Below, one piece after another: positions 1,836 to 14,816 of a stretch of DNA of 64,000 nt. The notes under the pieces were generated by a model that was not told where the DNA came from, searched no databases, and saw only the letters and a list, made by a program, of their open reading frames with translations. Numbering within the stretch: the stretch's first letter is position 1; every line of letters starts with the position of its first letter. Source of the stretch: Terriglobia bacterium (GTDB taxonomy: Bacteria; Acidobacteriota; Terriglobia; 20CM-2-55-15); contig CAXWPJ010000009.1 of NCBI GenBank assembly GCA_963664115.2, positions 992,001 through 1,056,000 on the forward strand, read 5' to 3'. Both the position numbers and the translations under genes were made by a program.

Positions 1836-3965
1836 CTACCGGAAGGCCTCCGGGACGTTGAAGGTAAATATCGCGTTGTGTGTCTTGTCGGAAACCATCA
1901 CGTTCTGATTCCTGACATCGAGGGTGACGCCTCGCGCGTCCTTCAAGAGGACGTTCGGCCCGCCGATCGTCCACCGGGGCTCAGTGGGGCCGTCATCGAA
2001 GACGCTCCACACACCCACATAGTCTTCCTCCAGGAATCGCCCGCCGGGACGGACGACTCCGAAAATCATTCCGTTCTCCGGATTGCTGGTCAGCAACGAA
2101 ACTGCTGCCGCTGCATCACCGGTGATGACCCGGAGCGGAGGCGTGTTGCCCGAAGCCGTGCGATCGAAGATCTGGAGCTTGTCGCCGCCCGAGACGATCA
2201 GGAGATCGTGCACGGGGTCTATCGTCAGCCGGCCCGCAGTTAAATTCGTATCGGGTCCCTCCAGAGTCCGGAGGGGCGCCACATCGCCGTCCGCGTCCCG
2301 GTCGAAGACCAGCACCCGGCGGCCCTGGGGAACGAATATCTCCCCATGGACTGCATCTATGGCAAGAGCCTGCGGATTATGTATTTGCGTGCGGGGTCCC
2401 ATAATCTGGCGGACGGGCGCCGCGTCGCCATCCGCGCCCGCGGCGAAGGTGAGAATGGAAAGGTTATACCAACCGGGTACAAGGATCTCATCCCGCACCG
2501 GGTCGTAGGCCATGTCGTGAATCGTGCGTGTGAAATTAGTATTCTGTCCGGCAATGGACCGCGTCGCCGTTGTGCTCCCATCCGCCAGCCTGGCGAATGC
2601 CGCAATCTGCGGGTGGCCCACTCAGTTGCCGCCGAGGATTTCCTCGCGCCGAGTGTCGTACGTGATCGTGTGGACGTTTGCGAGCATGGGCCCGCGGGAG
2701 TCGGCGGGGCCGCTGCGAATCACGCGCGTTGGCGTAGGATCTCCTTCAGCGGTAATGTCATACACGGTCGCGGAGTGACTGCCCAGATTGGCGACCCACA
2801 GCTCGTCGTTGGTCAGGTCCAGCTTCACCCCGACAGGGTGGTTGATCAACGAGTTTGGACCCTGGAGGACTCGAATAGGAGCGGCGTTGCCGTCCGCATC
2901 GGCGCTGTAAACCGTTACCGTATGGCCGGTGTCATTGGCGACGAAGATCTCGCCCCGTTCCGGATGCACCGCGATATCGGTCGGCCAGTTCAGCAAGGTG
3001 TTAGGTCCCTGGATCACCTGCAAGGGTGCGACATTCCCCTGGGCATCCTTGCGGTACACAGTAATGGAGGGCGGCTCGTTCCGTCCCGAACCCGGAATGT
3101 TGGCTTCGCGCCCGACGGGCCAGTTGGCTTTTCCTTCTCCACGATTCAGGGTGGTCGGCGCGTCTGTGTCATAGTGGCGGTCCGCCACCGTACCCCAATT
3201 GGTGACAAAAATCAGGCCCGCGCTCGAGTCCACGGCGATCCCATGGGGATCGGCCAATCGCGTGGCCGATCCCTGGATCAGCCGCACGGGGGACTCTTCG
3301 TCCTCGGCCGATTTCCGAAAAACTGAGACCGCATGATCGTCCTGGACGGTCATGAAGATTTCCTGGGTCGCTTCATCGATGGACATCCGAACGGTCGTGT
3401 GCGGTGTGGCCAGTTTCCTCTTCGGCGCCACATTCCCTTGAGCGTCACGGCCCCAGACCGTCATCCAATTCAAGGTGTCGTTGTTGATGGCATAGATGTC
3501 GCCGCTTTCGGGGTCGATATAGATGCCGCAAACGTACTCCAGGAAGGTGTTCTCTCCCTGAATCACCCGTCTGGGTTCGCTGAACGCAGCAGTTGGCGGT
3601 GTATTCGTCATCCGGTCGTAGACGACGATGCTGAAATTATTTTCGTCGCCAGCGACAAGTTCACCTCGGATGGGGTCGATGTCAATGGCGGCAAACACAT
3701 GACGGGCGTCATGGATCGTACGGATGGGCGGTCTGTTCGCCACCGCCGCTCTTTCCGCCTCGCTCGGCCGGGGGGGAGGGTCCGTAGCCGCTCCTGCTTG
3801 GGCGCCTTCAACCAGCGCCATCAGACTCCCTGGAGCGCTGGCGGCCATCAGAATTGTCTGCCCGTTTCCGTCCGGCCCCAGCTGCCCGTTTTGAGGCAAC
3901 GCGCCGACAGCCACCGACAGACATAAAACCAGTGAGATCATTAAAATCCACTGCCTTGGTTTCAT
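1836..3965 (-). CDS. Secreted NHL-repeat beta-propeller protein, predicted selenoprotein (Sec at TGA 2622-2624; about 709 aa)
   Basis: ORFs 2622-3965 and 1836-2621 abut in frame (...EEILGGN-TGA-GTG GHPQIAAFARLADG). The TGA falls inside a blade repeat. The paralog at 13340 has the same TGA. A SECIS-like hairpin lies downstream. Signal peptide MKPRQWILMISLVLCLSVAVG, with a GAGGAGG RBS. Confidence 0.85.
2579..2599 (-). promoter_or_regulatory. Putative bacterial SECIS hairpin (propeller 1)
   Basis: mRNA CAUUCGCCA-GGC-UGGCGGAUG begins 22 nt after the UGA. The loop starts with G. Confidence 0.75.
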
Positions 3966-6356: not shown

Positions 6357-6527
6357 ACCACCTGCCACGACTATCTTCTGTAACACCATCTGTTGAAAAG
6401 CCCCTCTGTGACAGGGAATAGTAACGCGTCCTTCGGCCGGAATAAAACAGCTTGGATTCAGTTAGTTGTAAGTTTAATATCGACTTGCATTGGCGTGTCT
6501 GTTTGACTTGGAGAAGCAGGCGATCAA

Positions 6528-7151
6528 ATGGCTCGGAAAAAATACGGCAAACAATTCGCTAAGATGTTTGCGGCGATAGCGCTGCTGACCGTGACCGTCA
6601 TCGGGCTCGGTTATGGCTCGCTGCTTCGCGCTATGGATCAAGCTGGGGAAGACTATGGCCGGGGCGATGTGGAGGCTGCGCTGACCCGTTACGAGAGCAT
6701 CGAGGGTCGGCTGCGTTCCCTGGGCGCTCTGCGCATGATACCGGCGAAAGACCGCGGGAATCTTATTCTGAACCAGGCACGCCTGCTCTATGCCCTCGGT
6801 CGCTATGAGGATGCCCAGGTAGCCATGGATCGGGAGACTGAAATCGCCGGTGTCGCCAACAACGATTGCCGATTCCTTCTGTTGAACGGCGACATTGCAT
6901 TCCGGAGAGCCGTCAGGAATTACCGCGAATCGTCGGAGGGGGATGCGGGGTTGCTGGACGACGCCCTGCGCACTGCCGAAACTTATCTGCGTGATTCCCT
7001 GCGCCTCTGCCCGAATGACTGGGACGCCAAATACAATTTTGAGTTCATGCGGCTGAATCGGGCTCGGCCGGCACAGATCCCACTTTTGATGATGGGCGGT
7101 GATAACCAGGATCCGCCGCCGACAACCCTTCCGGCGGAACTGTCACCTTGA
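6528..7151 (+). CDS. MxaK-like TPR membrane-anchored protein
   Basis: N-terminal TM helix, TPR-like helices, and SLRLCPNDWDAKYNFE (compare MxaK/BatC ALRxxPxxWDAxYNLE). First gene of the MoxR-VWA operon. Confidence 0.65.
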   Translation: MARKKYGKQFAKMFAAIALLTVTVIGLGYGSLLRAMDQAGEDYGRGDVEAALTRYESIEGRLRSLGALRMIPAKDRGNLILNQARLLYALGRYEDAQVAMDRETEIAGVANNDCRFLLLNGDIAFRRAVRNYRESSEGDAGLLDDALRTAETYLRDSLRLCPNDWDAKYNFEFMRLNRARPAQIPLLMMGGDNQDPPPTTLPAELSP

Positions 7152-7185
7152 TTTCGGCGCCTCGATCACTCAGCGATAATCTCTG

Positions 7186-8202
7186 ATGGAATTTGCAAGA
7201 CAAGAATACTTCTGGCTGTTGCTGCCGGTTCCCTTTGTAGTTCTGCTCTGGGGAATCGGTGTATGGCACCTGCGGCGGATGCGGATCCGATTCGGAAATA
7301 TCGGAAACCTCGCGTCCATCTCAAGAATCTCCTGGTCAGGCAGAGAGTGGTTCCGAGGTCTGCTGTTTGTGGGCGCTCTGGGGCTGATGGTCGTGGCCCT
7401 GGCTGAGCCCAGCGCAGTTGTTCGGGAGTTGCACGCCGTTCCGACACCCACGGATCTGGTGTTCTTGTTGGATACCTCCCCCTCCATGTACGGACGCGAC
7501 ATGGATCCCAACCGGCTGGGTCGTGCTGAACGAATCATTGAGAGATTCCTCTTTCTGAAGCAGCCCGAGGATCGTTATGGCTTGATCTCGTTCAACTGGA
7601 CGAGCGTGGTGTTGTCCTACCTGACCCGCGATCCCCAAAGCATCTTGCTGTACTTCGATTATCTCAATCAGCTGAATGTGCCACAGCCGGGCACCAATGT
7701 GGGCGCCGTGCTGACCAACGCGATGCAGCTGGTTGCCACCGAACGGACCCTCGATCCGGAAAGCGCCCAGAATCGCCGCGTCGTTTTCGTCCTCCTTTCG
7801 GACGGAGACGATACGGCGGACGAGATCGAGGAGCCTCTGGCCGAGGTAGTTCGATCTGGGATTAATATCTATTCCATCGGTCTGGGTACGGCGAACGGCT
7901 CGAACGTGCCGATGGAGATGGCGGGGGGGTTGAACGGCCGGCCGGTAAGGTACTACCAGCGCTACGACGGGGTCCGGCTGATCAGTCAAGCGCAGGCCAG
8001 AACCATGAGAGAGGTCTCCGACCGGACGGGCGGACGGTTCGTGCGCGGTGAGCTGGAAGAGCAGGTGGATCAACTCATGGAGGAAATCCTGGTCGACAGC
8101 CGGCCTGTGTCCGGTTTCGAATCGAGCGCTGTGCGCCGAGACCTCTATGTTTATTTTCTGATGGCCGCTTTGGGATGCCTGTTGGTCGGCGTCTTTTTAT
8201 AA
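7186..8202 (+). CDS. VWA-domain membrane protein (MxaL/BatB-like)
   Basis: Two N-terminal TMs, MIDAS DTSPSM, GTN, LLSDGD, and a C-terminal TM. Confidence 0.85.
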   Translation: MEFARQEYFWLLLPVPFVVLLWGIGVWHLRRMRIRFGNIGNLASISRISWSGREWFRGLLFVGALGLMVVALAEPSAVVRELHAVPTPTDLVFLLDTSPSMYGRDMDPNRLGRAERIIERFLFLKQPEDRYGLISFNWTSVVLSYLTRDPQSILLYFDYLNQLNVPQPGTNVGAVLTNAMQLVATERTLDPESAQNRRVVFVLLSDGDDTADEIEEPLAEVVRSGINIYSIGLGTANGSNVPMEMAGGLNGRPVRYYQRYDGVRLISQAQARTMREVSDRTGGRFVRGELEEQVDQLMEEILVDSRPVSGFESSAVRRDLYVYFLMAALGCLLVGVFL

Positions 8203-8222
8203 CCGGCCTGGAGCCCTTGAGG

Positions 8223-9248
8223 ATGGAATCGTTGACCGAACACGTGGAAACGAAAGAGCAGGCATGGGAGGTCATCGCCAGAATCGAAGAGCAGATCCGC
8301 AAGGTGATTATCGGACAGGACGATTTGATCCGGCGCATCCTGATCGGGCTGTTCGGGCGCATTTCCTACTCGTTCAAGAAGGGGCAGGACGAAAAAACAG
8401 GTTCGGGTCACATTTTGTTGGAAGGCGTGCCCGGACTCGCGAAAACGCTGCTTGTCTCGGCCATTGCCAGCACGATTGACGCCAAGTTCCAGCGCATTCA
8501 GTTCACGCCGGATATGCTGCCCGCCGATATTCTTGGAACCAAAATCTTCGATAGCAAGGTCGGCGAATTCCGTACTGAAACAGGTCCGATCTTTGCCAAC
8601 ATTATTCTGGCGGATGAAATCAACCGCGCCCCGCAGAAGACGCAGAGCGCTCTGTTGGAAGCCATGCAGGAGCGCCAGGTCACGATCGGCGAGACTACAT
8701 ACGCGTTGGATGATCCTTTCTGGGTCCTGGCGACTCAGAACCCCGTGGAGCAGGAAGGCGTGTTCTCACTGCCCGAAGCACAGCTGGATCGATTTTGCAT
8801 GATGGTTCGTGTGCATTACCCGTCCCCGGAAAGCGAATACGACATGCTCTCAGCGAGTCTCGAAAAAACGGGCCTGGAATCGGTGACCGGCCCCAAAGCA
8901 GTTCTCGCGATCCGGCAATTAGTCGGTCAGGTGCACGTGGACGAAAAGATTCGCCGGTATATCGTTGCCATCGGCCAGAACACGCGCAGTAACGGCACGA
9001 ACACACTGCCGATTGTGGAGGAGATGGTCATGCACGGCGTATCGCCGCGCTCTTACAATCACCTGCTGGCGATGTGTCGTGCCGTAGCTTTTTTCCGCCG
9101 GCGCGATTACGTTCTCCCTTCGGATGTGAAGTACATTGCGCCCGATGTGCTGCACCACAGAATCGTGCGCACGATCCGGGCAGAAGTCGAAAACGTGGAA
9201 TCCGACGAGATCGTCGCCGAGGTGTTGCGACATACTCCGATTCCTTAA
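8223..9248 (+). CDS. moxR: MoxR-family AAA+ ATPase (MxaR-like)
   Basis: HILLEGVPGLAKT (Walker A), RIQFTPDMLPAD, ILADEINRAPQKTQSALLEAMQE, ATQNPVEQEG, LPEAQLDRF. Confidence 0.95.
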   Translation: MESLTEHVETKEQAWEVIARIEEQIRKVIIGQDDLIRRILIGLFGRISYSFKKGQDEKTGSGHILLEGVPGLAKTLLVSAIASTIDAKFQRIQFTPDMLPADILGTKIFDSKVGEFRTETGPIFANIILADEINRAPQKTQSALLEAMQERQVTIGETTYALDDPFWVLATQNPVEQEGVFSLPEAQLDRFCMMVRVHYPSPESEYDMLSASLEKTGLESVTGPKAVLAIRQLVGQVHVDEKIRRYIVAIGQNTRSNGTNTLPIVEEMVMHGVSPRSYNHLLAMCRAVAFFRRRDYVLPSDVKYIAPDVLHHRIVRTIRAEVENVESDEIVAEVLRHTPIP

Positions 9249-9256
9249 GAGGTCCT

Positions 9257-10150
9257 ATGGCGCTGGCGCCGGAATTAGTAGAAGAGCTTCGATATGTGGA
9301 AATCAGCGTGGCGCGGCGCATTCGCAGCCTGCGCTTCGGCCAGAATCGCAGCCCATTAAAGGGCTCTGGCTACGAATTCGAGGCCCACAGCAAGTACCAG
9401 GTTGGCGAAGATTTTCGGCGCATCGACTGGAACGTTACAGCGCGCATGCAGGAAGTCTTCATCAAGCGCCATTTTGAGGAACGGGAGGTCTCGGTATTTC
9501 TGGTGGCGGATGTATCCCGCTCAATGCGTTTCTCAACGGCGAAACATTCCAAGAACCTGCGACTGATGCAGGTGGGCGCCACTCTCGGTTTTTCTGCTGT
9601 CAGCGACAGCTGCAACTTTGGCTGGCTGGCGTTCAGTGATCAGGTGGAAGCCTACGAGCCCCCTCGCAAGGGTCGCGCACATGTGTGGCGGGCGATTGAT
9701 AGACTTCACAACCTGAAGCCGAAGCACTCGGGAACCAATTGGGAGCTTGCGTTGCGTTTTCTGCGTAGCCACCTGCGGGGCATGTCCATTGTGTTTCTGC
9801 TCTCGGATTTCATTACAGACCCGGATGCGACCCAGCTGAGGGAACTGCCAGATCTTAAGGTCCTGGCGCAAAAACACGACGTGGTTCCCATCGTGTTCGT
9901 CGATCAACTGGAAAAAACCCTTCCTACAGGCAAAGGGCTGCTCCGCTTTCGTTCGGCCGAGGGCCGCGATGAAATATTGCTCAGCCTTTCCTCGCGTCAG
10001 AGGCGCGCGTTCGACGCCTTGGTGGAGAAACGTAAAGCGGATCTACGGGATCTGTTTTACTCCTTGGGAATGGAGTGCCTGTTTTTGAACGTGGGCGAAG
10101 CGTTCACCGATTCCCTGATGATGCTATTTCAAAGGCGGAAGAAAATATGA
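9257..10150 (+). CDS. DUF58-domain protein (MxaS-like)
   Basis: GSGYEF...YQVGEDFRRIDWNVTAR...FEEERE...DVSRSM, LLSDF. Directly follows moxR. Confidence 0.9.
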   Translation: MALAPELVEELRYVEISVARRIRSLRFGQNRSPLKGSGYEFEAHSKYQVGEDFRRIDWNVTARMQEVFIKRHFEEREVSVFLVADVSRSMRFSTAKHSKNLRLMQVGATLGFSAVSDSCNFGWLAFSDQVEAYEPPRKGRAHVWRAIDRLHNLKPKHSGTNWELALRFLRSHLRGMSIVFLLSDFITDPDATQLRELPDLKVLAQKHDVVPIVFVDQLEKTLPTGKGLLRFRSAEGRDEILLSLSSRQRRAFDALVEKRKADLRDLFYSLGMECLFLNVGEAFTDSLMMLFQRRKKI

Positions 10151-11115
10151 AGGCGACTTTGCTGTGCATAGCCCTGGGCTTCGCGAACCAGGTGGCCTGG
10201 GCTCAGACAGTGACGACCGATGCCGTTACGGACTCTTCGGATCTGCGGTTCACTGTTCATTTGGATAGAACAGCCGTCTGGCCCGGCGATCAGTTCCACT
10301 ATCTCATCATTGTCGACTACTCCTCTGATTACGAATTCGTTCTCGACAACCTGAGCCAAGAGAGCATTAACATGGACCCCTTTGAGGTCATAGACGTCGG
10401 AACGAATCTGGTTGTTAATAGCACAGGCCGGAGATTGTTCGTGGATCTGACACTGGCCAACTTCGAAACCCTGCAGGGCAGAATGGACATTCCACAGTTC
10501 ACCCTGTTTTATTTCCGTACAGAGAACAATACCGTCGGTGTGGATCAGGCGGCTGCCGAAAGCCTGACGATTCCCGGACCCGCCATCGGAATTCGTAGCA
10601 CGTTGGAGCCGAATCCCGACGACATCCGCGATGCAGTTACGGTGATCGGGTGGGACCGCAGTCGCTGGGTGTTTCCCGCCCTCGGCTGGATTTGTGGTGC
10701 GGTTTTGGTCTTGGGTTCGGGGCGGGAGCTGGTGTTGTTTGTCCAGCGAAGAAAAGCGCGCAAAGGTCCGGATCGCCGCAAAGCGATGAAAGCCGTCCGC
10801 GACCGGTGGACGAGCGGCGTGCCTTCAGAGTTCACGGATCCGGAGACCTGCTCGGCTTTTCTCGACCATTCCTACCAGAACCTGAAGGAGTACGTCGGGC
10901 ATTACCTGGAGACTCCCACCATGGGACTGACCTCTGAGGAGATGCGCGAGGAAATGCGACGTCAGGGTGCAAGCACGGACCTGTCCGAGAAAGTTGCTAA
11001 AGTGCTGGAGGCTTGTGAGACAACCCGCTACGCGCGCAACGGTGTGTCGGAACGCGGGGAAGCGGCGCGTGTCGTGGCCGACGGCATGCGCGAAATTCTG
11101 AGCCCCAAGGGATAG
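10147..11115 (+). CDS. Exported/membrane accessory protein (MxaA/BatD-like)
   Basis: ATGA overlap with the DUF58 stop. Signal peptide, beta-rich domain, TM helix and helical tail (YLE...GLTSEE...CETTRYA). Sits at the MxaA position in the operon. Confidence 0.6.
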   Translation: MKATLLCIALGFANQVAWAQTVTTDAVTDSSDLRFTVHLDRTAVWPGDQFHYLIIVDYSSDYEFVLDNLSQESINMDPFEVIDVGTNLVVNSTGRRLFVDLTLANFETLQGRMDIPQFTLFYFRTENNTVGVDQAAAESLTIPGPAIGIRSTLEPNPDDIRDAVTVIGWDRSRWVFPALGWICGAVLVLGSGRELVLFVQRRKARKGPDRRKAMKAVRDRWTSGVPSEFTDPETCSAFLDHSYQNLKEYVGHYLETPTMGLTSEEMREEMRRQGASTDLSEKVAKVLEACETTRYARNGVSERGEAARVVADGMREILSPKG

Positions 11116-11122
11116 TCAACGA

Positions 11123-12055
11123 ATGACGTTTCTGTATCTCCAGTGGCTTTATTTAGCGGTGCCGCTACTGCTGATCGCGTTGGGCCTGCGCTTCTGGAGA
11201 CGGCACTATTGGGGACACTCCCTCGTGTCCCAGATGCGGGAAGAGATCGGTGGTCCGAATCCCATTCTGCGCATGCCTGCCATCCTGGAGGGAGCGGCGG
11301 TGGCATTGCTGCTCACCGCGCTGCTGGGTCCCATCTACCCCTTTGTCGTGAACCGCGTCGAACGCGGTGGGCTGCAGATCCTGATCGTGCTCGACCTCTC
11401 CCAGAGCATGGAAATACCGCTGGGAGACCGGTCGAGAATGGAAGTCATCAAGGCGAGCGCAACCGAATTCATCGACCGCCGACCGGGTGATGCCGTTGGC
11501 CTCGTGGTGTTTTCTCATAACGGATATCTGGTCACACCCGCCACCTTCGATCACGAAAGCCTGCTTTCGTATCTACAGCGGGTCAGCCCGCAGACACTCG
11601 CGCACGAGGGATACACGGCTATCGGCGAGGGTCTTGCCGCCGCCCAGGAGTTTTTTCTCTTCAGCAGAGAACGCGGCGGCCGCGGTAAAGGCGAGGTCAT
11701 TGTCTTGTTCAGCGACGGGGAAAGCAATTGGGGCAGGGACCCCTTGCAGGAAGTGGAAAGAGCGCGCCAGGACGGCGTCCGTATCTACTTTATCGGCGTT
11801 GCACTGCAAGAGGAGGCCGCAGGGCGGATCGCCGCCGCAGTCCCGTCCACGGGCGGAAAGTTTTTCGATGCTCAGATCCCCGGGCACATCGTGGAGGCTC
11901 TCGAAGAGATCAACACGACGGAGCAGGGCCGCTTCTCTACGCTCCAGTTAAGACGGGAACAACCCGCCTACTTTGTTTTTGTCCTCCTGGCGTTCGCGGC
12001 CCTCGCGCTGCGGATGATACTCCATGGTATCCCGCATTTCGTGGAGATCAGTTAA
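11123..12055 (+). CDS. VWA-domain membrane protein (MxaC/BatA-like)
   Basis: N-terminal TMs, MIDAS DLSQSM, FIDRRPGDAVGLVVFS, TAIGEGL, LFSDGESN, C-terminal TM. Confidence 0.88.
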   Translation: MTFLYLQWLYLAVPLLLIALGLRFWRRHYWGHSLVSQMREEIGGPNPILRMPAILEGAAVALLLTALLGPIYPFVVNRVERGGLQILIVLDLSQSMEIPLGDRSRMEVIKASATEFIDRRPGDAVGLVVFSHNGYLVTPATFDHESLLSYLQRVSPQTLAHEGYTAIGEGLAAAQEFFLFSRERGGRGKGEVIVLFSDGESNWGRDPLQEVERARQDGVRIYFIGVALQEEAAGRIAAAVPSTGGKFFDAQIPGHIVEALEEINTTEQGRFSTLQLRREQPAYFVFVLLAFAALALRMILHGIPHFVEIS

Positions 12056-12061
12056 CCGCTT

Positions 12062-12447
12062 TTAGAACAATTCGGGCACGCGGAACGTCAGAACCGAATT
12101 GAGCCTCTTGTCACTGACGATGATGCTCTGGTTCTTCACGTCCAGCGCCACTCCACGTGGCATCTCGAGAACGCCATCGGGTCCACCGATCGTCCACAAC
12201 GGCGGGCCATCGCTGCTCGCTTCATAGCTCCACACACCCAAACAGGAAACAGGATCCGCCAGAGTCTCCCCGACCGGTCGGTTCGTCGCGAAAATGAGTT
12301 TCTTCGGCGGATAGATCGCGAACGGTCCGCCCAGACTGCGGGGGCCTTGGATCGTCATTATCGGGTCGACCTTGCCATTGGCAAGGCGATCATAAAGCAG
12401 GAAAGTGGTCGCGGTCCTGCCCCCGCCCCCACCTCCGGAGGCTGGGG
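12062..12447 (-). pseudogene. 3' remnant of a third beta-propeller paralog
   Basis: ...FLLYDRLANGKVDPIMTIQGP...LGVWSY...PPLWTIGGP...PRGVALD...SDKRLNSVLTFRVPELF* aligns with the last blades of both propellers. An in-frame TAA lies just upstream and the 5' part is missing. Confidence 0.8.
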
Positions 12448-12502
12448 CTTAGCCTGTCCTTCGTGGTCAGAAGATCTCCCGCGGTCAGAAGATTACTTCG
12501 GA

Positions 12503-14569
12503 TCAGAAGATCTCTGGAACCGAAAACACCAGAATGCCGTTCAAGCGCATATCGGAAATAATCACTTCCTGGTCTTCAGGGTTCAATACCACTCCAAAGG
12601 GTTTCTTCAGCGTTGTCGTCGGTCCCGCCGGGAGCTTCCAAAGCGGCGGAATGTCCCCGTTATCTTCGTAGCTCCATACGCCTAAAAAGGCGCCCTCCGG
12701 TTCCATGTGATCTCGAATCCCGGGCATCGCCGCGACGATCAGCTTCCTCTGTGGATAGACCTGCATCTGGTTGATCCGTACAATCCCCGAATTCGGACCG
12801 CGGATTACGGCCCGCGGCTTTACGTTTCCTTCGTCCGTCCGGTTAAACACCAGGAGCGCGCCCCGCTGGGCGTCTGGTGACCGAGAACTACCGAAGGAGC
12901 TGTTTAAGCCGACTACCAGAATGTCGTTGATCGGATCCACGGAAACCACATTAACGGATTCCAAGCCGGTGTCGGGACCCTCGATGATTCGAAGGGGCGC
13001 AACGTCACCGTTGGCTTCGCGCGGATATACCTTAATACTGTTGCCGCTGTAGGTGAAAATCTCGTCGTGAATGGGGTCCACATCCAAGCGGCTGCCTATC
13101 GTTCCGGTCCGGGGGCCCTGTATGATTCGAATGGGTGCTTCCTGTCCATCGGCGCCTCCGCGGAACGTCAGGATCGCCTCTGCAAACGGGTTGGGCACAA
13201 GAAATTCATCGTTGATTTCATCGTAGCGGATGTCGTGCATGGTTCGCGACAGCTTGCTCGCCTGCCCGAAAACGGCCCGTTCGGGTTGCTGTGCTCCGTC
13301 CGCCAGCCTGGCGAACGCCGCAATTTGCGGATGGGCCACTCAGTTGGGCACCAGAATTTGATCCCGTAAGGTGTCGTATCCGACAGCCCCCGGGTTGCCG
13401 ATGTTGAGCGACAGTCTATCCGCCGGTCCAGATCGAATCGTGCGCGATGGGCTAACATCCCCGTTGGCCGTCACCGGGTACACCGTCACCGAGGCATTTC
13501 CCATGTTCGCAACATAGAGTTCGTCGTTGGTGGGATCGACCGTGATTCCGGGCGGATGTTTGATTCCGGTGTTCGGCCCCTTGATGACGCGGATCGGAGC
13601 CACATCACCCTTGTCTGACATCCGAAAAACCAGGACAGAGTCGTCAGCGTCATTCGCAAGGAACAATTCCTGCCGCTCCTCGTGCAAGGCCAGATGCGAA
13701 GGCCAATTCATCAATGTCTGGGGTCCTTCGATGATCCAGAGAGGCTCCGTATTTTCCGACGCCTCCAGGGGATACACGGTGATTGATGGAGACTCGAACT
13801 TCCCCCATTCCCGTGGGCGCGTACCGGCTGGAGAACCGGGCGGTGGCGCCACGGTCTCCCGACCGTTTCCGTAATTGCTCACGAACACCAGGTTGTTACT
13901 CGCATCGATCGCGATCCCGTGGGGATCTTCCAGCTGCGTGTCGTTCCCACGCAACACGCGAAGCGGTTCCTCTTCACCCTCCGCACCCTTCCGATAAACA
14001 TAGACCGCGTTCTGGTGCTGCACCATCAGGAACATCTCCTGTCTCTCTTCGTGCATGGCGATCCCGAAGGTTCCGTGGGGTGTGGCCAGCACCCGCGTCG
14101 GTGTCGCGTTACCCCGGGCGTCGGGAGAAAAAACAGGCAGCCAGTCCTGCGTGTCGTTGTTGACGACGTAAATCTCGCTGGTGACCGGGTCGATATAGAC
14201 CCCGCACATCATCTCCGCAAACGTGTCCGGCCCGGAAATAACCCGTCTCGGCTCCGTGAAAAGTGCCGACGCGGGAGTGTCGGAGCGACTGTCGAACTCC
14301 AGGATCTGAAACAAGTTCTCATCGGTGACGACGAGCATGTTGTTATCCGGATTCACCGCCACCGCGCTTAATGAAGGGTAGGGATCCTTAATAAACCGAA
14401 GCGGGGCCCGTTCGATCAACACGGTCTCTCGATCTCCTCCGCCCTGCGCGTATGCGACCTCTGAAATCTTCCAACTTCCAACCACGATTGCATCCGCTAG
14501 CGACACGATCAAGCCGAGGCAAATCGTCGATAGCAGCCAGATCCTCCAGTTATGACCACCTTGATTCAT
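12503..14569 (-). CDS. Secreted NHL-repeat beta-propeller protein, predicted selenoprotein (Sec at TGA 13340-13342; about 688 aa)
   Basis: ORFs 13340-14689 and 12503-13339 abut in frame (...DQILVPN-TGA-GTG AHPQIAAFARLADG). Start ATG 14569 follows AAGGAGG. Signal peptide present. Paralog of 1836-3965. Confidence 0.85.
13297..13317 (-). promoter_or_regulatory. Putative bacterial SECIS hairpin (propeller 2)
   Basis: mRNA CGUUCGCCA-GGC-UGGCGGACG, 22 nt after the UGA. The A-U pair of copy 1 is replaced by G-C. Confidence 0.75.
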
Positions 14570-14773
14570 TACGGAACCTCCTTCACATTCGACTAAATTC
14601 GACCCACGTCTCCCTGCAGGCCGTGATTCATCGCAAGACCGATAATAACGACCAAACAGCGGGGATGCCCGGAAAATCGTTGAAATCATATCGATGTTCT
14701 TTGCTTAAGCCTTTCTTTTGGGACGACGGGGGAAACAATGTCACGAAGCGGCATCCTGCGTCAGAAACTGCTG

Positions 14774-14816
14774 AAACCGGCCCTTCCTCCGATTGGAGAA
14801 GGGCCGGTTCCGTTTT
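14774..14816. repeat. 43-bp palindromic element / terminator, copy B
   Basis: AAACCGGCCCTTCCTCCGATTGGAGAAGGGCCGGTTCCGTTTT, a direct repeat of 1763-1805. Confidence 0.8.

Follow-up and report, generated by a model that had tools for sequence, protein, structure and literature searches.

In the window, a 64,000-nt stretch of Acidobacteria DNA, an in-frame UGA that appears to divide one gene into two is almost certainly, judging from sequence, a site of SelB binding and selenocysteine (Sec) insertion. The main hairpin that follows it is very probably a functional bacterial SECIS element of the ordinary kind, which would yield a predicted double-propeller protein. In the proposed mechanism, this hairpin would bind the SelB-Sec-tRNA complex, the UGA would be recoded as Sec, and the two apparent genes would be fused into one product of 688 residues, probably exported. 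The gene, here called paralog 2, belongs to a strongly expanded double-propeller family that is a candidate for an uncatalogued selenoprotein family, with a conserved second hairpin as its variant feature.

Organization of the locus

The family features in the window all lie on the minus strand (offsets are nucleotides 3' of the UGA):

14577..14583, minus strand: Shine-Dalgarno-like AAGGAGG, read from the sequence, 7 nt 5' of the ATG at 14569
12503..14569, minus strand: paralog 2, a single 688-codon frame if the UGA is Sec410
13340..13342, minus strand: in-frame UGA of paralog 2, predicted Sec410, on the blade-7 loop that joins strands 404-408 and 415-420
13318..13330, minus strand: small 5' hairpin of paralog 2, +10 to +22, 5 bp, 3-nt loop
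13297..13317, minus strand: main SECIS-type hairpin of paralog 2, +23 to +43, 9 bp, -12.7 kcal/mol
13306..13308, minus strand: apical loop GGC of the main hairpin, 31 nt 3' of the UGA
1836..3965, minus strand: paralog 1, 709 codons with the UGA as codon 448
2622..2624, minus strand: in-frame UGA of paralog 1
2600..2612, minus strand: small 5' hairpin of paralog 1
2579..2599, minus strand: main hairpin of paralog 1, with A-U at +24/+42 where paralog 2 has G-C
12062..12430, minus strand: partial family copy covering just the 3' end (the last blades), immediately downstream of paralog 2, with its upstream boundary placed approximately

Paralog 2 reads from the ATG at 14569 through 409 codons to the UGA at 13342-13340, and through 278 more to the UGA at 12505-12503. 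The window neighbours of the family genes encode a DUF5916 protein and c-type cytochromes. Short imperfect repeats occupy ~12462-12520 (minus strand), between paralog 2 and the family fragment. Two 46-nt hairpins, 89% identical and with T-rich flanks, resemble a repeated terminator; one (1760-1805) lies just 3' of paralog 1 and the other (14771-14816) between the DUF5916 gene and paralog 2. The plus-strand stretch between the paralogs (6393-12055) presumably encodes a MoxR AAA+ ATPase and VWA-domain partners, which it resembles by motifs, and we take two small adjoining plus-strand ORFs at 1-570 to be akin, again by motifs, to a HigB/HigA-type toxin-antitoxin pair.

A sequencing error at the UGA was considered and rejected, as no variant was seen at 13340-13342 among the 40 of 120 rows listed. 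Contigs identical to the window span the UGA in one unclassified run and one RNA-library run; those from the RNA library span parts of the paralog 2 gene, and contigs of this sort cannot demonstrate transcription. The depth of contigs in the bin 13291-13371 rises from below 10 in its two neighbours to 344 (X2) and from below 20 to 382 (X7) because contigs from other copies match at 90% only there; loose contig ends lie near 13295 and 13360 at this peak. In two runs labelled as sponge metagenome, 30-37% of the words of the window are present.

The in-frame UGA as a probable selenocysteine codon

The host genome (4.89 Mb, 97% complete) carries selA, selB, selC and selD: the tRNA-Sec (71.6 bits, anticodon UCA), selA, selB with its winged-helix domains and selD were all detected over cut-off, and the selD gene itself carries a TGA. 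RF2 is present as well. The in-frame UGA aligns with a conserved Cys; at this column, the best 120 of 1,064 database homologs have Cys in 104 cases and W, G or S in 3, and 13 end at the preceding Pro-Asn. A strict UGA-plus-hairpin pattern was found in 22 of the 23 genomes searched, with 0 matches to the reversed-pattern control, and all 22 other genomes with the pattern hold either selA over cut-off or selB together with tRNA-Sec. No selA was found in G308 (2 Mb), G325 (81% complete) or G360 (95% complete), and in G329 it is in pieces; G360 holds 23 family matches alongside selB, selD and tRNA-Sec.

At the break, the codon is UGA in all 83 UGA versions collected, whereas the true gene ends use UGA (43), UAG (22) and UAA (8). 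This argues against two coupled genes in which the UGA is a true stop, translation restarts at an adjacent GUG, and the hairpin tunes termination or re-initiation. A GUG does lie directly 3' of the UGA in 74/83 versions, but the next codon is GUC, CUG or GUA in 9/83 and a Shine-Dalgarno-like 4-mer is found 5-20 nt upstream in 0/83; re-initiation at the GUG is thus unlikely. The two halves are held as separate public clusters (~440-500 aa and 270-300 aa) and RF2 could serve a real stop, yet 104 of the 120 homologs run continuously through the site with Cys, and the break is predicted to fall in the middle of a blade. Coupled genes are, on balance, extremely improbable.

The tRNA complement bears on another alternative, in which a suppressor-type tRNA or an altered code would lead to reading of the UGA as Cys or Trp and the hairpin would be a generic read-through enhancer. 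The tRNA with a UCA anticodon is the single one among 52 (ARAGORN) and is a full-length match to the Rfam tRNA-Sec; the tRNA-Trp has the anticodon CCA, RF2 is present, and the paralog 2 gene itself ends in UGA. Cys does function at the site in many homologs, and one database protein has W and one has G there, probably through gene calling under other codes. The loop, however, resembles those 3' of the UGA in selD and other known selenoprotein types of this genome, and we consider decoding as Cys or Trp very improbable.

Sec insertion as the preferred reading does not imply a single product. SECIS-directed recoding in E. coli is 30-40% efficient (PMC4513850), and therefore a truncated product may also arise here.

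The main hairpin and the bacterial SECIS consensus

As the earlier note had described, a stem with a GGC loop lies 22 nt 3' of the UGA in both paralogs (9 bp in each), the AGG Arg codon is at the apex in both, and a smaller 5-bp hairpin lies 5' of it (13330-13318 in paralog 2 and 2612-2600 in paralog 1). The two differences between the main hairpins are indeed synonymous (Ala GCG/GCA, Asp GAC/GAU) and exchange G-C for A-U.

The bacterial SECIS consensus comprises four constraints (PMC13188914, section 5): an apical loop of 3-9 nt on a 4-16-bp upper stem; a G within the first two loop positions, mostly as G(G/U); a UGA-loop spacing of 16-37 nt; and a free energy of -7.5 kcal/mol or lower. The main hairpin of paralog 2 lies within all four, with a 3-nt loop on a 9-bp stem, the loop sequence GGC, a spacing of 31 nt and -12.7 kcal/mol (-11.3 kcal/mol for paralog 1). 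Across UGA versions, the loop at the same register is GGN in 82/83 and GUG in 1/83; the weakest copy in the genome, on contig C10, reaches -7.2 kcal/mol for the bare stem. With the consensus and its prototype, E. coli fdhF, the hairpin shares its position within the coding sequence, shortly 3' of the UGA, a 3-nt loop starting with GG, a 9-bp stem and a SelABCD genome. It differs in that the loop is near the far end of the permitted range and that a second conserved hairpin stands alongside, a feature not in the text of section 5 of PMC13188914. At gathering score, the window has no match to any Rfam family.

Folding energy was rejected as evidence for a SECIS element; in 6/6 folds, single sequences gave z = -0.30 to -1.05 relative to dinucleotide shuffles. 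The single-sequence fold is unremarkable, and what lies beyond chance is the conservation of the stem at the level of the family. Searching the 4.89-Mb genome for a degenerate core motif gave 13 occurrences, 13/13 of them at the same distance 3' of a TGA.

Covariation in the two helices

RNAalifold recovers both helices unaided from the UGA alignment. In this alignment of 82 UGA sequences, 94.1% of cells are paired and two-sided changes occur in 6/14 pairs; 0/500 shuffles match it on any of five measures, and controls slid along the alignment are 31-50% paired. The 35 Cys sequences are 80.2% paired and beat their shuffles on two measures (percent paired and covariation score). The shuffle counts, like the Fisher tests, overstate the support because the sequences are related.

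The pair that the earlier note had singled out (+24/+42) is the most varied, with G-C in 26, C-G in 20 and A-U in 11 sequences; it is paired in only 63/82, the lowest of the nine, and is not the best evidence for the stem. Three other sites give cleaner cases. At +27/+39, C-G becomes U-A through two synonymous changes in 8 sequences; at +28/+38 in L164, G-C becomes C-G with two amino-acid changes, Ala-Arg-Leu-Ala becoming Pro-Arg-Leu-Gly; and L138 covaries at the closing pair.

Conservation of the stem in UGA and Cys versions

A total of 119 distinct junctions were collected, 83 with UGA and 36 with Cys codons (the latter as DNA loci). A stem of at least 6 bp in fixed register is present in 79/83 UGA versions (the other 4/83 are L086, L127, L134 and L153) and in 14/36 Cys versions; the hairpin is thus tied to UGA rather than Cys versions. 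The apex AGG follows the same division (81/83 vs 10/36), against a background in which AGG makes up 7.5% of Arg codons in long ORFs of the genome. Equal conservation in Cys homologs had been named beforehand as the outcome that would speak against a SECIS element, and the SECIS reading survived this comparison; it is supported, at the sequence level, by the UGA/Cys contrast together with the Sec machinery of the genome.

The contrast is complete outside one Cys clade, where both the stem of at least 6 bp and the AGG are found in 0/19 versions, and partial within it. The remaining clade of 17 sequences holds all Cys versions that keep the hairpin, with the stem in 14/17 and AGG in 10/17. It was split off post hoc by a protein motif and has a tree support of 100 (unrooted FastTree, 2 short rows omitted); the difference in stem from the first 46 UGA versions gave p = 0.057. 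Its members are metagenome contigs (L055, L056, L059, L061, L063-L068, L071, L073, L075, L088, L089, L094 and L095). Erosion is visible at the apex of this clade, as AGG to AGA in 4 sequences, AGG to CGA in 3 and GCC to GCT in 3.

The hairpin of this clade is probably an eroding SECIS remnant; SECIS-like structures that persist in Cys versions derived from selenoproteins have been described (PMC1794560). Compared with those remnants, the present case is alike in having an eroding hairpin at the same place in one Cys clade, and it differs in combining a largely intact remnant (17 sequences) with complete loss (19) within one family and in switching between Sec and Cys at least 12 times on the tree. 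The best tree has 18 such state changes, of which at least 12 are forced by well-supported branches (FastTree, 171 near-full-length proteins, trait columns removed, unrooted; the Cys of database proteins was read from the protein). We infer the direction to be from Sec to Cys. A single Cys copy is the only one in G310, a 2.1-Mb and probably incomplete genome with no match to selA, selB or tRNA-Sec.

The largely intact hairpin in 14/17 members of this clade, together with the ordinary folding energy, could also suggest that the hairpin arises incidentally from the conserved peptide FARLA and from codon bias, or that it has a role in pausing or in the stability of the mRNA that has nothing to do with the UGA. 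Random synonymous recoding, however, gave a stem of at least 7 bp in just 2.3% of 200,000 draws (codon frequencies taken from the genome, except for Asp and Gly, which were assumed). Three genomes hold a stemless Cys copy as well as hairpin-bearing UGA copies (L037, L039 and L040 vs L127-L129 and L136-L138), which controls for codon bias: the same genomes drop the hairpin in their Cys copies. With the hairpin eroding in the Cys clade, and with remnants after a Sec-to-Cys change described in PMC1794560, an origin unrelated to the UGA is exceedingly improbable.

The small 5' hairpin and the spacing of the loop

Two side-by-side hairpins are folded by 13/13 genome copies when the first 8 nt after the UGA, the assumed ribosome coverage, are masked. 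The mean pair probability of the small hairpin exceeds 0.5 in 64/83 UGA versions, in 7/17 of the remnant Cys versions and in 4/19 other Cys versions. The Ala7 codon is GCG in 78/78 UGA versions vs 7/15 in the stemless Cys group. Codon choice at Pro4 can be read both ways: CCG is used in 83/83 UGA versions, as compared with 31/78 and 31/71 at two other Pro sites, and it is also used in 19/19 stemless Cys versions, which counts against selection on the small hairpin. In UGA versions, Arg5 is AGR with Ser7 (4/4) and CGN with Ala7 (3/3), keeping the pair, and in Cys versions with Ser7 it is CGC (4/4), breaking it; both comparisons involve few lineages. In 27/82 UGA sequences, the small hairpin lacks its outer pair. 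Taken together, the 5' hairpin is likely to be a selected structure.

The small hairpin was considered as the SelB-binding loop and rejected; its loop begins 14 nt past the UGA, with A first in 15/75 Gln-coding versions, including paralog 2, and it is an unlikely SelB site because its loop is without a fixed G. In 12 other candidate selenoprotein genes of this genome, the spacing from UGA to loop is 17-26 nt (median 21), as compared with 31 nt in the family. By folding away 11-13 nt, the 5' hairpin would shrink the 31-nt spacing to ~20 nt, like that of the other candidates, and its job may be to bring the distant loop within this ~20-nt reach, a suggestion to which we give somewhat less than even weight.

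Copy number, distribution and other candidate selenoproteins

The host genome holds 13 family copies, all with UGA and hairpin (13/13). In 11 genomes chosen for holding a family locus, one TGA was present in 146 of 150 listed matches (167 matches in total). Among 60 relatives, the family occurs in 15, with one TGA in 148 of the 150 matches listed (231 found, host included); three of these family-bearing relatives overlap with the 11 chosen genomes. The family is patchy but expanded, since it was present in 1/300 genomes drawn evenly across the phylum and yet reaches 27 matches in a 3.8-Mb genome assembled as one contig, and 40 in a 4.2-Mb genome that is fragmented and comes with no contamination estimate.

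Two host copies (C2:357005-359326 and C9:1077021-1079342) share the same sequence for 75 nt beyond the UGA and have similar search scores, which suggests a recent duplication or transfer between these loci. Three family loci (C9:987653-991003, C9:1061753-1065151 and C12:27677-30883) adjoin ORFs of 1,068-1,132 aa with signal-type starts, which resemble TonB-dependent receptors. Two Cys-type homologs (P0102 and P0106) are labelled archaeal (Nitrososphaerota, Thaumarchaeota), through transfer or misbinning.

The other UGA candidates came from a non-exhaustive genome scan for an in-frame UGA followed by a hairpin, from which 20 were picked by eye and 12 kept; the other 8/20 were without sign of being selenoproteins. 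Those kept are in redox-type family proteins: SelD, three deiodinase-like, two peroxiredoxin-like, OsmC, rhodanese, ArsC-like, DUF3179, MerB-like and DUF411. Of these, 10/12 have a stem of 7-8 bp capped by a G(G/U)N triloop, one of the ten folding otherwise in a separate fold. Eleven are of catalogued types (loci L168-L173, L175, L179, L180, L184 and L186). In the DUF411 candidate (C5:202820, plus strand; L174:66-659), the UGA opens a U-G-C-C motif, and an 8-bp stem capped by a GGU loop comes next; this UGA is outside the stretch matched by Pfam, and DUF411 is not named in the tables of PMC13188914 and PMC9312934, as far as these were available.

Predicted structure and function of the protein

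The AlphaFold2 model (98 sequences; pLDDT 92.5, pTM 0.90) has an N-terminal helix at residues 8-27 and twelve blades, and Pfam matches are to NHL and Lactonase. The hydrophobic helix is predicted to be an export signal or anchor. In the predicted model, residues 62-368 match six-bladed NHL propellers as a whole (Z 29.5, rmsd 2.1-2.3 Å over ~250 residues). A second propeller, apparently closed by an N-terminal strand, is read from matches spanning residues 49-688. In whole-chain Foldseek searches, only weak tandem WD40 matches were returned (best TM ~0.35), and no solved structure covers the whole protein. Compared with the NHL propellers of TRIM2, TRIM71/Lin41, NHLRC2, SOQ1 and the PknD sensor, the fold of the single propeller is the same; the differences are an identity of 13-22%, the tandem arrangement and the Sec/Cys in a blade loop. 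A 6-phosphogluconolactonase or seven-bladed lactonase was rejected, with 33 bits against an equivalog cut-off of 370 and six-bladed NHL as the top fold matches.

Residue 410 is modelled in a blade-7 loop between two strands, so termination there would yield an unfinished blade. Across 67 UGA and 104 Cys proteins, no variation is seen at Asn409, Arg442 or His445; Thr443 is nearly invariant. The blade loops with residue 410 and the conserved residues presumably share the ligand-binding face, as in NHL architecture. Our best guess for the protein is a catalytic selenolate in the blade-7 loop, which would act with Arg442, His445 and Thr443 of the next blade in extracytoplasmic redox or group-transfer chemistry; this assignment is tentative, at somewhat less than even odds. 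No CxxU-type or UxxC motif and no Sec-linked partner Cys was found in the family. Cys122 was tried as a partner of Sec, being Cys in 53/67 UGA vs 22/104 Cys versions, and was rejected; it follows clade, since it is unchanged in ~11.6 of 12 independent Sec/Cys pairs.

Relation to catalogued selenoproteins and implications

By table names and NCBIfam models, the family stands apart from the catalogued selenoprotein families. Neither the 87 families in Table 1 of PMC9312934 nor, in the part of it available, the 119 in Table 1 of PMC13188914 include a propeller, NHL or lactonase family by name, and no propeller selenoprotein appears in the main text of PMC13326102, PMC12013277, PMC1976440, PMC2398784 or PMC13745706. 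None of four proteins (4/4) has an NCBIfam model over cut-off. Literature searches, with most subscription papers and the full BSepDB family list outside their scope, found no report of a propeller selenoprotein. An NHL-repeat selenoprotein is reportedly mentioned in older marine surveys; the main text of PMC1976440 and PMC2398784 gave no hit for one. The family resembles catalogued ones in having one Sec, at a position where homologs carry a conserved Cys, and an in-frame SECIS; it differs in having no CxxU/UxxC motif and in its 13 copies in one genome.

Combined, the observations may describe a two-hairpin SECIS, with a spacer-shortening 5' hairpin, in an uncatalogued family of exported double propellers, which accounts for about half the candidates (13/25 found) and shows up to 27-40 copies in related Acidobacteria, repeated Sec/Cys switching and remnants of different ages; as a whole, this composite picture falls a little short of an even chance. 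The recoding mechanism itself is ordinary. If the reading is true, gene callers are dividing Acidobacteria genes by the hundred, each into a pair of hypothetical halves. In BSepDB, the ten organisms richest in selenoproteins have 46-63 such genes, and one family alone, at 27 or 40 matches per genome, would near these totals. Selenium chemistry would likewise gain a propeller scaffold without a CxxU-type motif, and the many natural variants of the family, which include compensatory changes and hairpins that are intact, eroding or lost, would form a test set for the requirements of a bacterial SECIS and for how the distance between UGA and loop is set.
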